From an uncultured Actinomycetota bacterium (lineage in GTDB: Bacteria; Actinomycetota; Actinomycetes; JAFAQI01), in NCBI GenBank assembly GCA_963770565.1, contig CAVYQE010000010.1, forward strand, positions 93,826-157,825: a stretch of DNA of 64,000 bases. The letters are read 5' to 3'. A program made the translations under genes and the position numbers. Below the pieces are notes generated by a model. It worked only from the letters and a program-made list of their open reading frames with translations. It had not been told where the DNA came from and made no database searches. Below are positions 2,815-31,733 of the stretch, piece by piece; position 1 is the first letter of the stretch; each line of letters starts with the position of its first letter.

Positions 2815-3930
2815 ATGGCGGTGGCAGCCGAGCAAGCCGCGATGCGGCGCGCTCTCGCCCTTGCCGAATCCGTCCTCGGTACGACGAACCCCAACCCCGC
2901 GGTCGGTGCCGTTGTCCTCGACGAGCTCGGCCAGCCGGTCGGCGAGGGTGCGACCGCACCGGCCGGCGGCGACCACGCCGAGATCGTCGCGCTTGCGGCC
3001 GCCGGTGACAGGGCCCGCGGCGGCACTCTTGTCGTGACCCTCGAGCCCTGCCGGCACACCGGCCGGACCGGTCCGTGCACAACCGTGATCCTGGCCGCCG
3101 GGGTGGCTCGCGTCGTCTACGCCGTCACCGATCCCAACGAGCGCGCGCAAGGCGGTGCGGACGAGCTCCGCCGCGGTGGGGTCGAAGTCGAGGCCGGCTT
3201 GCTCGCACCCGACGTGGGGCGGCTGCTCGAACCGTGGCTTGCCAGCGTGGCGCGGCACCGCCCGTACGTCACGTGGAAGTACGCCGCCAGCCTCGACGGC
3301 CGCACCGCCGCGGCGGACGGGACCAGTCGCTGGATCACCGGGCCGGTCGCTCGTGCCGACGTCCACCGGGAGCGGGCCCTTGCAGACACGGTGATGGTCG
3401 GGATCGGCACCGTGCTCGCCGACGATCCGGAACTGACCGTCCGCGACTGGCCGACGCCGCGCCAACCGATCCGGGTGGTGGTCGATTCCGCGGCCCGGAC
3501 CCCACTATCCGCTCAGGTGCTCAGTCCAGCTGCGTTAACGATCATCGCGGTCGCGACCGACGCAGACCCGGGACGGGTCGAGGCACTCCGATCGGCCGGC
3601 GCCGACGTCTTCGTCCTGCGCGGCGACCGCAACGGGGTCGACCTCGGGGAACTGCTCGCGGCGTTGTTCGACCGCGAGGTCCACAACGTCTGGCTGGAGG
3701 GCGGCGCCACCCTTGCCGGCTCCTTTGTCACAGCGGGCCTGGTCGACCGGGTGGTCGGCTATCACGCCCCGCTGTTGCTCGGCGCGGGCACGCCGCTGGT
3801 CGGTGACCTCGGATCCGCGACCCTCGCAACGGCGCAACGCCTTGCCCTCGACGACGTCGTACGGGTCGGCGAGGACGTGAAGCTGGTGGCGCGGATGAGT
3901 CACCGTGATGCAGAAGGGCGACCAGACTGA
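2815..3930 (+). CDS. ribD: bifunctional diaminohydroxyphosphoribosylaminopyrimidine deaminase / 5-amino-6-(5-phosphoribosylamino)uracil reductase
   Basis: Carries the deaminase zinc motifs HAEIVAL and LEPCRHTGRTGPC, followed by a reductase domain. GGAGGA lies upstream of the ATG. Confidence 0.9.
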   Translation: MAVAAEQAAMRRALALAESVLGTTNPNPAVGAVVLDELGQPVGEGATAPAGGDHAEIVALAAAGDRARGGTLVVTLEPCRHTGRTGPCTTVILAAGVARVVYAVTDPNERAQGGADELRRGGVEVEAGLLAPDVGRLLEPWLASVARHRPYVTWKYAASLDGRTAAADGTSRWITGPVARADVHRERALADTVMVGIGTVLADDPELTVRDWPTPRQPIRVVVDSAARTPLSAQVLSPAALTIIAVATDADPGRVEALRSAGADVFVLRGDRNGVDLGELLAALFDREVHNVWLEGGATLAGSFVTAGLVDRVVGYHAPLLLGAGTPLVGDLGSATLATAQRLALDDVVRVGEDVKLVARMSHRDAEGRPD

Positions 3931-4538
3931 TGTTCACCGGCATCGTCGAAACGCTCGGCACCGTGATCGCGGTCGACGAGCTGGCCGAGGCTGCCCGGCT
4001 GACGATCGACAGCACCGGCTTCGACGACGTCCGCGCCGGCGACTCGGTGGCGGTCAACGGGGTGTGTCTCACCGCCGTGACGAACGACCCGGCACGCTTC
4101 ACCGCGGACGTGATGAACGAAACCCTCACCCGGTCCACTCTTGGCAGCCTTCGTCCCGGCGAGCCGGTGAACCTCGAACGCGCGGTGACACCCAGCAGCC
4201 GACTGGGCGGACACATCGTGCAAGGGCACGTCGACGGAGTCGGCATCGTGCGCGCCCGCCGGTCGAGTGAACGGTGGGACGTGGTCGACGTCGAACTGCC
4301 CCCCGAGCTGGCGAAGTACGTCGTGGAGAAGGGCTCGATCGCCCTCGACGGGGTCAGCCTCACGGTCGCGGCAGTGGAGGGCGCAACGATCCGGGTGAGT
4401 CTGATCCCCGAGACGCTGACCCGGACGACCCTCGGCACCCGTGCGGTCGGCGACGGCGTGAACCTCGAAGTCGACGTGCTGGCGAAGTACGTCGAGCGGT
4501 TGCTCGCCGACGGGGCCGCGGATCGGGGGCAGGGATGA
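3930..4538 (+). CDS. ribE: riboflavin synthase alpha chain
   Basis: Has the MFTGIVE N-terminus and the duplicated lumazine-binding repeat ([12 protein letters not shown] / [11 protein letters not shown]). The start overlaps the ribD stop. Confidence 0.9.
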
Positions 4539-5950
4539 GCGACTTCACCGAGATCGAGCGCGCCATCGCCGATATCGCGGCCGGCAAGCCGGTCATCGTC
4601 GTCGACGACGCCGACCGGGAGAACGAAGGCGACCTGATCTTTGCCGCCGAGATGGCGACACCGGAGCTGGTCGCGTTCATGGTGCGCTACACCTCGGGCT
4701 ACATCTGCGTGCCATTGACCGAGTCCGACTGCGACCGGCTCGAGCTCCCGCCGATGTACCACACCAACCAGGACCGGCGCGGTACGGCGTACACGGTGTC
4801 CGTCGATGCCCGCGACGGCACGTCGACCGGCATCTCGGCGCACGACCGTTCACTGACGATGCGGATGCTGGCCGATCCGGCGTCGAGTGCCGCCGACTTC
4901 ACCCGACCTGGTCATGTCGTGCCGCTACGGGCGAAGGACGGCGGCGTCCTGCGCCGGCCCGGGCACACCGAGGCCGCGGTCGACCTGTGTCTACTCGCGG
5001 GCCTCCGGCCGGCCGGTGTGCTGTGCGAGATCGTCAGCGAGAAGGACGTCGAGGACATGGCTCGCCTCGACGAGCTCGAGCTGTTCGCCGCGGTGCACGA
5101 GCTTGCGCTGATCTCGATTGCGGACCTGATCGCCTACCGCCGGCGCACCGAGCGCCAGGTGCAGAGGGTCGCCGAGGCGCGGATCCCCACGGCGCACGGC
5201 GAGTTCCGCGCGGTCGGCTATCGAAGCCTGGTCGACGGGATCGAACACATTGCGCTGGTGCGTGGTGACATCGGCGCCGGCGACGACGTACTGGTCCGGG
5301 TCCACTCCGAGTGCCTGACCGGCGACGTCTTCGGCAGCCGGCGCTGCGACTGCGGCCCACAACTCGATGCGGCGATCGCCGCGGTTGCCGCCGAAGGCCG
5401 GGGAGTGGTCCTCTATGTGCGCGGGCACGAAGGCCGGGGGATCGGCCTGATGCACAAGTTGCAGGCCTATCAACTGCAGGACGAGGGTCAGGACACCATC
5501 GATGCCAACACCTCGCTCGGGCTGCCGGCCGATGCGCGCGACTACGGCACCGGCGCGCAGATCCTCTCTGATCTCGGGGTCCGTTCGATGCGGCTGCTGA
5601 CCAACAACCCGTCGAAGCGGGCCGGGCTCGAGGGTTACGACCTGTCGATCGTCGGCCGGGTGCCGCTGCCGGTGCGGGTCACCGCCGACAACCTGCGCTA
5701 CCTCACGACGAAGCGGGACCGGATGGGGCACGACCTCCCCGATCTCCCGGCCAGCGTCGACGACGAGGCGACCGAGGCAACCGCCGACGCGTTGCCGGCA
5801 GCAGTCAGCGAGCGGGCCGCGCGACTCGAGCCGGCCGCGGTCCGCAGCGCCCTTCGGCTGGCCCACGCGCATGCACTGTCGCCCTTCGCACTCCCGGTCG
5901 TCGAGCCGGGGTCGGACGATGACGAAGCCACGACCGGGGTGGATCAATGA
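4535..5950 (+). CDS. ribBA: bifunctional 3,4-dihydroxy-2-butanone-4-phosphate synthase / GTP cyclohydrolase II, with a C-terminal extension
   Basis: ATG 4535 overlaps the ribE stop (ATGA). Contains DRENEGDL and [18 protein letters not shown] motifs. The longer track ORF starting at 4274 was rejected as an out-of-gene extension. Confidence 0.88.
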
Positions 5951-25492: not shown

Positions 25493-25765
25493 GGCTCGGT
25501 TGCCCCGAGACGGGTCGAGAGACCCTGGCCGGTGCGCATCCGTCCCTTGAGAACTCAACAGCGTGCCAAAAGTCAGTGCCAAACGTCCGGTTTGGGCCGC
25601 TTCGGCGACCCCAAAACGGGCAAAAATTGGCGATGACAGACGAACAGCTAGTTTGTAAGTCTGAGCAACGTCAGGTGAATACGGTTCACCAGAACCGTAC
25701 TTTTCAATGTGTCGATGAACCGACGCCGTCCTCTTCGGAGCCGGCGACGGATTATCTGTAGACAT

Positions 25766-27289
<1,524 letters not shown>

Positions 27290-30469: not shown

Positions 30470-30503
30470 TACGCGAGCTGGGTTTAGAACGTCGCGAGAC
30501 AGT

Positions 30504-31229
30504 GGACATAACGCGCTGTCTATAAATTCGGCTAAATGCTGGAAACACCGAGTATCTCGGACTACTCGTTCTTGTCGGAGCCCCTGTCTAGGGTTCCGCT
30601 ATGAGCAGTGACAATGTCTCGAGTGCGGTCAATCAGCAGGAAAGGCTGGATCCGTACATCGCAGGGTTCGTTGATGGAGAAGGTTCGTTTCACGTTGCTG
30701 TCCAACGACATCCGACTACTCGGTTGGGTTGGCAGCTCGTGCCGGAGTTTCACGTCAGTCAGGACGTGTCACGGGCTGAGGTCCTGTACCTCATCCGGGA
30801 TCGTCTCGGCTGCGGACGGATCCGGGAGAACCATCGCGGTACACGGGACACCACACTGGTGTACGTCGTGCGCCGGCGGCATGACCTGGTGACTCGGGTC
30901 ATCCCGTTCTTCGAAACGGAGCCATTGATCAGCGGTAAGCAGCAGGAGTTTGTCACCTTCGCACGCATCGTTCGCGCGATGCAGGCGGGGGAGCATCTCG
31001 ACGCTGCTGGGTTCGCTCGACTTCGGGCATCGGCGCTCGCCATGAATGGCGGGGGGCGATACCGACGAGTGCACCGTCCAGAATCCTCAGAGACTCCACG
31101 CCGAACACCGATTGCAGCTCTGATCGGTGAAGATATAGTCCGACCTGCATGGCGACATGCAGAGCCAGGCAGAAATGACCTGGCCCCAACGCTGAGCAAT
31201 GATGATTTGGCGTTGTGGTAACACATGTG
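30504..31229 (+). mobile_element. group I intron in the 23S rRNA gene (inserted between the equivalents of E. coli U2604 and U2605)
   Basis: The 5' exon ends in T and the intron ends in G. P1 pairs exon 30497-30503 with IGS 30515-30521, giving a U.G pair at the splice site. The P element AAATGCTGGAAAC is at 30534-30546, the Q element AATCAGCAGG at 30631-30640, the R element TCAGAGACTCCA at 31087-31098, and the S element AAGATATAGTCC at 31130-31141. Helices that pair by eye are P3 (30527-32/31100-05), P4 (30537-42/30633-38), P6 (30646-51/31076-81), P7 with a bulged A, P8 (31106-12/31123-29), and P9 with a GCGA tetraloop (31145-31162). Confidence 0.88.
30601..31221 (+). CDS. single-motif LAGLIDADG homing endonuclease (I-CreI-like architecture), intron-encoded
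   Basis: The 206-aa ORF has the motif YIAGFVDGEGSF at residues 19-30, followed by an I-CreI-like beta-strand pattern (HVAVQ ... WQLVPEFHVSQ). No second LAGLIDADG motif is present. The GC content is visibly lower than in flanking genes. Confidence 0.88.
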   Translation: MSSDNVSSAVNQQERLDPYIAGFVDGEGSFHVAVQRHPTTRLGWQLVPEFHVSQDVSRAEVLYLIRDRLGCGRIRENHRGTRDTTLVYVVRRRHDLVTRVIPFFETEPLISGKQQEFVTFARIVRAMQAGEHLDAAGFARLRASALAMNGGGRYRRVHRPESSETPRRTPIAALIGEDIVRPAWRHAEPGRNDLAPTLSNDDLALW

Positions 31230-31361
31230 TCGGTCCCTATCCGCCGCGCGCGCAGGAAACTTGAGAAGGGCTGTCCCTAGTACGAGAGGACCGGGACGGA
31301 CGAACCTCTGGTGTGCCAGTTGTTCTGCCAAGAGCACTGCTGGTTGGCTACGTTCGGAAGT

Positions 31362-31612: not shown

Positions 31613-31733
31613 GTTTCGGCGGCACAATGGCGAAGGGGAAACGCCCGGTCCCATTCCGAACCCGGAAGCTAAGCCCTTCAGCGCCGATGGTACTGCCCTG
31701 GTGACGGGGTGGGAGAGTAGGACGCCGCCGGAC
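31613..31733 (+). rRNA. rrf: 5S ribosomal RNA
   Basis: Reads GTTTCGGCGGC ... CCCGGTCCCATTCCGAACCCGGAAGCTAAGCCC ... GGGAGAGTAGGACGCCGCCGGAC, about 120 nt. Confidence 0.95.

Follow-up and report, generated by a model that had tools for sequence, protein, structure and literature searches.

Within a window of 64,000 nucleotides (nt) from an uncultured soil Actinomycetota bacterium (contig CAVYQE010000010.1, positions 93,826 to 157,825; "the window" denotes this whole stretch), the 23S rRNA gene is interrupted by a 726-nt group I intron (30504–31229, + strand) that carries an open reading frame (ORF) for a LAGLIDADG homing endonuclease (30601–31221, +; 206 codons plus TAA, with an ATG start and a single motif). 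Both ends of the ORF extend from the L6 loop into the sequence of the ribozyme itself. The comparison with homologous introns strongly supports the view that the C-terminal tail of the encoded protein is a by-product translation of the ribozyme and not a conserved polypeptide. Considering all lines of evidence together, it is very likely that the insert is a mobile group I intron with a homing endonuclease in L6, the tail of which is a by-product of core creep.

The process we propose is the "core creep" of Edgell, Chalamcharla and Belfort (2011). The endonuclease gene has neither a start nor a stop of its own inside L6. Its AUG would be taken from the P5 extension, and 17 ribozyme codons (P5a′, P5′, P4′ and the 5′ strand of P6) would be translated before the first LAGLIDADG helix. 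Past the last helix of the fold (~residue 150), translation would continue to the first in-frame stop, which in the window is the UAA of the 3′-terminal UAACA. The resulting tail of ~50 residues would be a by-product, namely P6′-P7-P3′-P8-P7′-P9-P9.1-P9.2 read as codons.

Reading frames and stop codons of the tail

The non-coding part of the intron amounts to only 105 nt (97 + 8). The start ATG is placed between the two strands of P5 (30547–30550 and 30626–30629), and the 5′ overlap (30601–30651, +; codons 1–17, 51 nt) comprises the start codon, a conserved AGCAGUGACAAUG motif and ribozyme strands. Codons 18–158, the endonuclease body, fill the L6 loop (30652–31075, +; 424 nt), and the 3′ overlap (codons about 159–206, ~146 nt) coincides with P6′, J6/7, P7, P3′, P8, J8/7, P7′, P9, P9.1 and P9.2. 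At the 3′ terminus (31219–31229, +) the UAA stop (31219–31221) lies within the conserved UAACA, followed by 8 nt to the omega-G. This geometry had largely been seen in a preliminary description of the intron made before any database search. The ORF and the Rfam RF00028 coordinates agree with the ATG in the P5 extension, codons 11–13 (AAT CAG CAG, 30631–30639), described as the Q element, contain the P4 3′ strand UCAGCA, and the P6a pairing leaves exactly 30652–31075 for the 424-nt loop in which Pfam, PDB and AlphaFold2 place the fold. The distance of 8 nt from stop to splice site and the 105 non-coding nucleotides were both reproduced. All helices that the ORF had been said to traverse, from P6′ to P9.1, are indeed crossed, but so is the second peripheral hairpin P9.2, which had been missed.

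When genome and metagenome contigs were scanned with the ORF protein, 160 loci were obtained; in 118 of them a complete intron occupies precisely the same site. We distinguished 92 different ORF-bearing introns and counted 84 as intact, i.e. with the common frame open across the 5′ overlap; in the other 8 it is broken by a frameshift or an in-frame stop. Ten introns at the site, 276–381 nt long, have no ORF. All homologues share the end of the fold (...MNGGGRYRRVHR) in one frame and diverge downstream of it. Among the 120 best proteins, the conserved RNA AGAAUCCUCAGAGAC...GCCGAAC (P6′-P7-P3′) is translated in three ways: 72 proteins have PESSET..RTP, 30 have SRILRDHMPNT and 10 have QNPQRPYAEH, and in 7 a stop precedes it.

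The stop codons of the 84 intact introns are scattered in a similar way. Of these introns, 24 use the UGA at J8/7 (G-UGA-AG), 21, like the window, terminate at the UAA within the terminal GGUAACA, and 11 at a codon in P8/L8, while 8 terminate elsewhere in the core and 5 have no stop in the intron. The other 15 end with L6 just before P6a′, though the window ORF shows no sign of such a confinement to L6. J8/7 (AAGAUAU) and the 3′ strand of P7 (AGUCC; together 31130–31141, +), taken with the preceding G, offer a UGA and a UAG in two frames that the window ORF does not use; the UAG at J8/7-P7′ serves as stop in one intact intron. Where P7 has covaried to UGGUC, the UAG of AUAUAGUC is removed and that frame therefore opens. 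The three frames are almost evenly represented at J8/7 (31/27/26), and a neighbour-joining tree built from the endonuclease body requires no fewer than 31 switches of stop class and at least 29 of frame at this junction. The ORFs of loci L003, L008, L096, L108 and L154 (see also proteins P0043, P0057 and P0060) continue past the 3′ splice site and enter exon 2 of the 23S gene (...GGNNNVGPYPV). Since they contain no stop inside the intron, translation of the excised RNA would lack a stop codon.

What is kept in the tail is the RNA. The whole tail RNA, including UAACA, is retained in ORF-less introns, the 3′-terminal GGUAACA occurs with and without an ORF, and tail-only tblastn matches were found in loci without the endonuclease body, among them short group I introns located elsewhere in archaeal large-subunit (LSU) rRNA. 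Variable sites were counted by codon position in the 11 sequences of the window clade with the same frames. The body gave 62/36/110 of 141, and this distribution of substitutions is the signature of a protein under purifying selection; the tail gave 22/18/20 of 48, i.e. no codon-position bias. When the 48-codon tail was subjected to mononucleotide shuffling, 13.6% of the shuffles were without an in-frame stop, so the openness of the tail is within chance. In the AlphaFold2 model the predicted local distance difference test score (pLDDT) is below 50 for the tail residues 153–206. The earlier proposal, in which RNA structure and not the protein fold dictates the tail, is thus borne out by an alignment in which the tail is not conserved as protein and is read in three frames, by its persistence in ORF-less RNA and by the predicted disorder. 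The question of whether the tail is dispensable had also been raised; natural truncations, for example proteins of 175–178 amino acids that are 86–89% identical to the window protein over an aligned 83%, argue that it is.

Several observations weigh against this interpretation. The stop changes on the tree were counted without polarity, so that stop loss and stop gain are taken together. Expression data come from metatranscriptome contigs only, in which RNA of the intron body is present at depth 2–23 and junctions of exon 1 with TCGGTCCCTATC, the start of exon 2, at depths of several hundred, with mismatches and possibly from intron-less relatives; the exons are too conserved to tie these ligated junctions to the organism of the window, in which splicing and translation are predicted. 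Finally, the window clade (11 of 11 loci and about 20 proteins of 204–208 amino acids) keeps the full tail in one frame to the UAA. Together with length differences in L8 that are multiples of three within the clade, this would fit a tail that has gained a function of its own in the window lineage, be it maturase-like or RNA-binding, or as an extension for dimerisation or DNA contact, with the frame kept by selection. A precedent is the maturase-like activity of the LAGLIDADG protein from a Thermotoga 23S intron (PMC3984707). However, the even distribution of variable sites in the tail gives no hint of selection on a protein, and its seemingly conserved residues correspond to RNA that is kept in introns without an ORF as well. 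Four close relatives within the clade are truncated; relatives 76–89% identical (P0023–25 and P0036) terminate at J8/7 or in L8. The uniformity of the clade is also partly an effect of ascertainment, since the search favours full-length matches in its ranking. Moreover, the tail is predicted to be disordered and is slightly acidic (6 Arg versus 8 Asp/Glu in residues 159–206), unlike an arginine-rich RNA binder. An acquired role, including the maturase or RNA-binding activity considered in the preliminary description, is consequently very unlikely. For protein annotation this means that the last ~50 residues of this protein, and of many related database entries named "LAGLIDADG proteins", are ribozyme read as codons, unfit to be treated as a domain, to be included in protein alignments or to be used in enzyme engineering.

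The endonuclease and its 5′ overlap

A Pfam search matched LAGLIDADG_1 (PF00961) to residues 20–123 (E 8.4e-19, 68.8 bits versus a cut-off of 23.1). In the LAGLIDADG motif (YIAGFVDGEGSF, residues 19–30), G22, D25, E27 and G28 are invariant among 70 homologues. The half-domains of I-SmaMI and I-OnuI in the PDB align to residues 10–151 (E about 1e-31); further PDB matches are small homodimeric enzymes and relatives of I-CeuI/I-CreI, with E 1.2e-12 for an I-CreI-derived chain. From the alignment of the 70 homologues, AlphaFold2 predicts an alpha-beta-beta-alpha-beta-beta-alpha domain with pLDDT ~85–97 for residues ~11–152 (helix 16–27, strands 28–36 and 44–54, helix 60–69, strands 73–76 and 86–90, helix 93–106, then two helices).

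Single-motif LAGLIDADG enzymes work as homodimers. By analogy, the window enzyme presumably cleaves intron-less 23S rDNA near the insertion site, whereupon repair would copy the intron in. Intron-less alleles of the same site were found among the loci (L063, L066 and L069). Since intron-plus and intron-less alleles both exist, the context fits homing. An attempt to predict the homing site from palindromy at the insertion point was abandoned, as 5/8 positions (5/11 for a longer half-site) were symmetrical, no better than at neighbouring centres.

The 5′ overlap contains the 3′ strands of P5a (30616–30623), P5 (30626–30629) and P4 (UCAGCA, 30633–30638, the Q element), the first strand of P6 (30639–30640) and the 5′ strand of P6a (CUGGAU, 30646–30651; all +). 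The first AlphaFold2 helix begins at residue 16, whose codon belongs to the 5′ strand of P6a. Residues A9, N11, Q12, Q13, E14, R15 and L16 are invariant in the 70 homologues, but their codons are no less conserved as RNA in introns without the ORF. In the window clade, codons 1–17 show 4/5/5 of 17 variable sites, without codon-position bias. The 51-nt 5′ overlap thus appears to serve both RNA and protein, whereas the 146-nt 3′ overlap appears to serve the RNA only.

An ATG or GTG is present at the window start position in 62 of the 84 intact introns. No consistent Shine-Dalgarno sequence was found upstream of the start in the window or in the homologous introns; many homologues have a UAGGGU ~10 nt upstream, but it lies within the 3′ strand of a hairpin. 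In the window, the P5-extension hairpin GGAGCCC...GGGUUCC (30577–30597, +) is located just 5′ of the start codon, and the homologues have a hairpin here as well, in a poorly aligned region. The window also contains a 23-codon upstream ORF (30533–30604), with its AUG in J3/4-P4 (AAAUGCUGG) and a TGA overlapping the endonuclease start (cuAUGAgc). Where this AUG is in frame, as in some homologues, the predicted proteins have 223–264 amino acids and begin with MLETP....

The hosts of the homologous introns are mainly Actinomycetota and Acidimicrobiia from soil, joined by a few Gammaproteobacteria, a Dadabacteria and other genomes. On genome contigs the best match to the window is 82% identical, and identical or nearly identical copies occur only on the metagenome contigs L081–L084. 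Three of these (L082–L084) differ from the window at 4–5 positions in 726 nt, and in all three the start ATG is changed to AGG, with no other canonical in-frame start before the LAGLIDADG helix. This may be a first step of endonuclease decay, or these contigs may represent a second rRNA operon (rrn) copy. It is conceivable that the endonuclease gene of the window, too, is decaying or silent, the long ORF being a relic not yet broken in a GC-rich intron, with neither body nor tail made. The AGG variants, the 8 of 92 ORF-bearing introns that are not intact at the 5′ end, the 10 introns without an ORF and the missing Shine-Dalgarno sequence would all be compatible with this. On the other hand, the window ORF is intact, starts with ATG, has the invariant residues of the catalytic motif and contains no frameshift; substitutions across the family show purifying selection on the body, and the start codon has been kept in place in the majority of intact introns noted above. 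We therefore regard a dead gene as unlikely. AGG-start variants, broken ORFs and ORF-less introns rather fit the usual homing-endonuclease cycle of gain, decay and loss.

Insertion site, ribozyme and expression

Exon 1 ends in ...GAGACAGT at 30503 and exon 2 starts with TCGGTCCCTATC at 31230. Joined together they give the universal helix-93 sequence, and 23S rRNA genes without the intron read ...GAACGTCGCGAGACAGT directly followed by TCGGTCCCTATC... across the insertion point. In E. coli numbering the insertion point falls between U2604 and U2605, within the 3′ strand of helix 93 and beside A2602 of the peptidyl-transferase centre; the numbering was counted from A2602, U2609 and C2611 and agrees with site 2604 in PMC11270868. 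The base before the intron is an exon U (U30503) and its last base is a G (omega-G, 31229), as in all listed homologous introns except L045. Because the intron splits helix 93 beside A2602, it would have to be spliced out to yield a working ribosome.

For the analysis of covariation, 103 distinct introns were trimmed of L6 and then aligned. P3, P5, P5a, P6a, P7, P8, P9, P9.1 and P9.2 are nearly all canonical with changes on both sides; P2 is absent, P5 is extended, and P9.1 and P9.2 are present as peripheral elements. According to the Rfam RF00028 alignment and computed coordinates (all + strand), P1 forms between the exon sequence AGACAGU (30497–30503) and the internal guide sequence GCUGUCU (30515–30521), with a terminal U.G pair at the 5′ splice site after U30503. 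P3 pairs UUCGGC (30527–30532) with GCCGAA (31100–31105), being 100% canonical with three pairs changed on both sides, and P4 pairs UGCUGG (30537–30542) with 30633–30638. The 5′ strands of P5 (ACCG, 30547–30550) and P5a (CUCGGAC, 30556–30562) were assigned by covariation; P5, P5a CUCG/CGAG and P5a GAC/GUC are each 98–99% canonical, with many two-sided changes. As the main pairing of this region we rejected an alternative P5 hairpin, CGAGUA/UACUCG, which is 81% canonical versus 98–99% for P5a CUCGGAC/GUCUCGAG.

The 3′ overlap starts with the 3′ strands of P6a (GUCCAG, 31076–31081) and P6 (AAUCC), together 31076–31086. P6a is found as CUGGAU/AUCCAG, CUCGAC/GUCGAG, CUUGAC/GUCAAG and CCAGAU/AUCUGG. 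J6/7, the 5′ strand of P7 and the 3′ strand of P3 follow at 31087–31105. In the guanosine-binding P7, which comprises G31090 and the bulged A31091, GACU (31092–31095) pairs with AGUC-C (31137–31141); it is 100% canonical and shows UA/CG covariation (16 versus 87 sequences). The P8 hairpin CACCGAU...AUCGGUG (31106–31129) has two-sided changes in 6 of 7 pairs. P9 (31145–31162), P9.1 (31164–31184) and P9.2 (31186–31218) all lie inside the ORF, each with 5–6 two-sided pair changes. RF00028 aligns P1, P3, P4, P5, P6, P8 and P9 of the window intron at 36.9 bits (E 1.2e-7). The 424–436-nt insertion in P6 keeps this score under the gathering threshold of 50; ORF-less homologues at the same site pass the threshold (L068, 74.1 bits; L053, 56.8 bits). 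The predicted fold identifies the window insert as a group I intron.

Some of the related loci have features of their own. The intron of L068 (670–998) is the closest ORF-less relative; its flanking P6 sequence motifs are 19 nt apart, versus 435 in the window, and its P9.2 loop has a tandem duplication (AUGUCGAGCAUUGAUGAUUC twice). The Acidimicrobiaceae 23S gene of L053 contains three group I introns (2573–2880, 3380–3609 and 4363–4594), of which the one at site 2604 is ORF-less and 276 nt long; a LAGLIDADG relative sits between the Rfam matches of the first two, and L054, L056, L059, L061, L065 and L076 show a like pattern. In Thermoplasmata LSU rRNA, group I introns of ~200 nt (L075, 2958–3160; L077, 2871–3073) are found at another site, ~1,970 nt from the start of the gene. 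In tblastn the tail peptide matches their core with 47–66% identity, a likeness that hints at an intron subgroup shared between bacteria and archaea.

The rRNA operon of the window consists of the 16S (25765–27283), 23S (from 27679) and 5S (31615–31733) rRNA genes, as annotated with Rfam. The interrupted 23S gene extends from 27679, where the Rfam LSU match begins, to 31525 (+; exon 2 from 31230, 3′ end approximate). The Rfam LSU model was forced into the intron, giving 30579 as the 23S 3′ end and leaving the ~300 nt after the intron (31230 to about 31525) unannotated. Automated rRNA annotation will likewise cut 23S genes short at such introns. Unrelated to the intron, the window contains a flavin mononucleotide (FMN) riboswitch (2472–2630, +; 77.8 bits, gathering score 66.2).

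As to expression, the intron would be transcribed within pre-23S rRNA and self-splice. Since translation of the ORF must unwind P4-P6 and, in the window clade, P3-P9, the excised intron is the likeliest mRNA, and with such an mRNA translation would not need to compete with folding of the precursor. The same overlap could also be seen as a switch. The start codon and the first 17 codons are at the same time obligatory P5a′/P5′/P4′/P6 sequence, and a molecule being translated cannot be a folded ribozyme; the endonuclease would be made only from excised intron, or splicing would be actively delayed, with timing, or a maturase-like contact with its RNA, as the reason why the window clade retains its long tail. 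We consider such a regulatory scheme highly improbable. Another conceivable case is that the product is shorter than the ORF, the folded core stopping the ribosomes or the intron RNA being processed inside the core, so that the tail is not synthesised. Judging from the 5 homologues without a stop inside the intron, it seems to be of little importance where exactly termination occurs, and the expression of core-entering ORFs is tightly controlled according to a review (PMC3984707). However, helices of this size are as a rule no obstacle to ribosomes, and an in-frame UAA is available within the excised intron. We regard a shortened product as very unlikely.

Comparison with known systems

The protein and its position are reminiscent of the Cr.LSU intron with I-CreI (Chlamydomonas reinhardtii chloroplast 23S, site 2593). 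Both are domain V group I introns with a single-motif, homodimer-type LAGLIDADG_1 protein, and the I-CreI ORF lies in L6 of its intron. The insertion described here is 11 nt further 3′, however, and the window protein is nearer in sequence to the half-domains of I-OnuI and I-SmaMI (E about 1e-31) than to I-CreI. With these and with small homodimers (PDB 5e5o, 4lq0, 5gkk, 3e54 and 2ex5) it shares one LAGLIDADG domain, residues 10–151. Whereas the I-OnuI family consists of two-domain monomers from fungal mitochondria, the window protein has a single domain plus an unstructured tail of ~54 residues.

Group I introns with LAGLIDADG_1 ORFs have been described at 23S site 2604 of bacteria of the candidate phyla radiation (CPR, Patescibacteria) by Tsurumaki et al. 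(2024, PMC11270868); that site 2604 is among the sites meant in their statement was inferred from the order of their list. The likeness, drawn from the description and not from sequences, concerns the E. coli-numbered site and the Pfam family of the encoded protein, whereas the hosts here are mainly soil Actinomycetota and Acidimicrobiia. No report of actinobacterial 23S group I introns was found in the searchable literature, which is not proof of absence. The present loci show that introns at 23S-2604, known from CPR bacteria, are common in soil Actinomycetota. The LAGLIDADG proteins of CPR rRNA introns peak near 180 and 210 amino acids (PMC11270868), and by analogy this bimodality might have the same cause as here, namely termination at the J8/7 UGA versus the 3′ UAACA.

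The phenomenon of ORFs entering the core and its explanation have already been published. In "core creep", an ORF grows into the group I core when its original stop is lost or when translation begins further upstream, which predicts variable lengths of the extension and dispensable ends (PMC3073962). The same arrangement of ORF and core is illustrated by Hausner, Hafez and Edgell (2014, PMC3984707). As in the published examples, the ORF body of the window intron occupies a peripheral loop and its ends reach into the core, to the next stop or an upstream start. When the predictions were tested on the window intron family, the length of the extension was found to vary, and the extension was not conserved as protein, in line with the predicted dispensable ends. 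The overlaps in Table 1 of PMC3073962 range from 9 to 81 nt, e.g. 20 nt for T4 td/I-TevI and 81 nt, over P6/P7/P3/P8/P9.0/P9, for the LSU LAGLIDADG ORF of Synechococcus lividus. The overlap here, ~197 nt (about 51 nt 5′ and about 146 nt 3′), is above any of them. Furthermore, in contrast to those examples, a single intron family here displays all stages, with the stop at the end of L6, at J8/7, in the 3′ UAACA or nowhere in the intron. The window intron is a very clear example of core creep, and its family, at one rRNA site and with all three frames of the core in use, provides an unusually clean natural test of the process.

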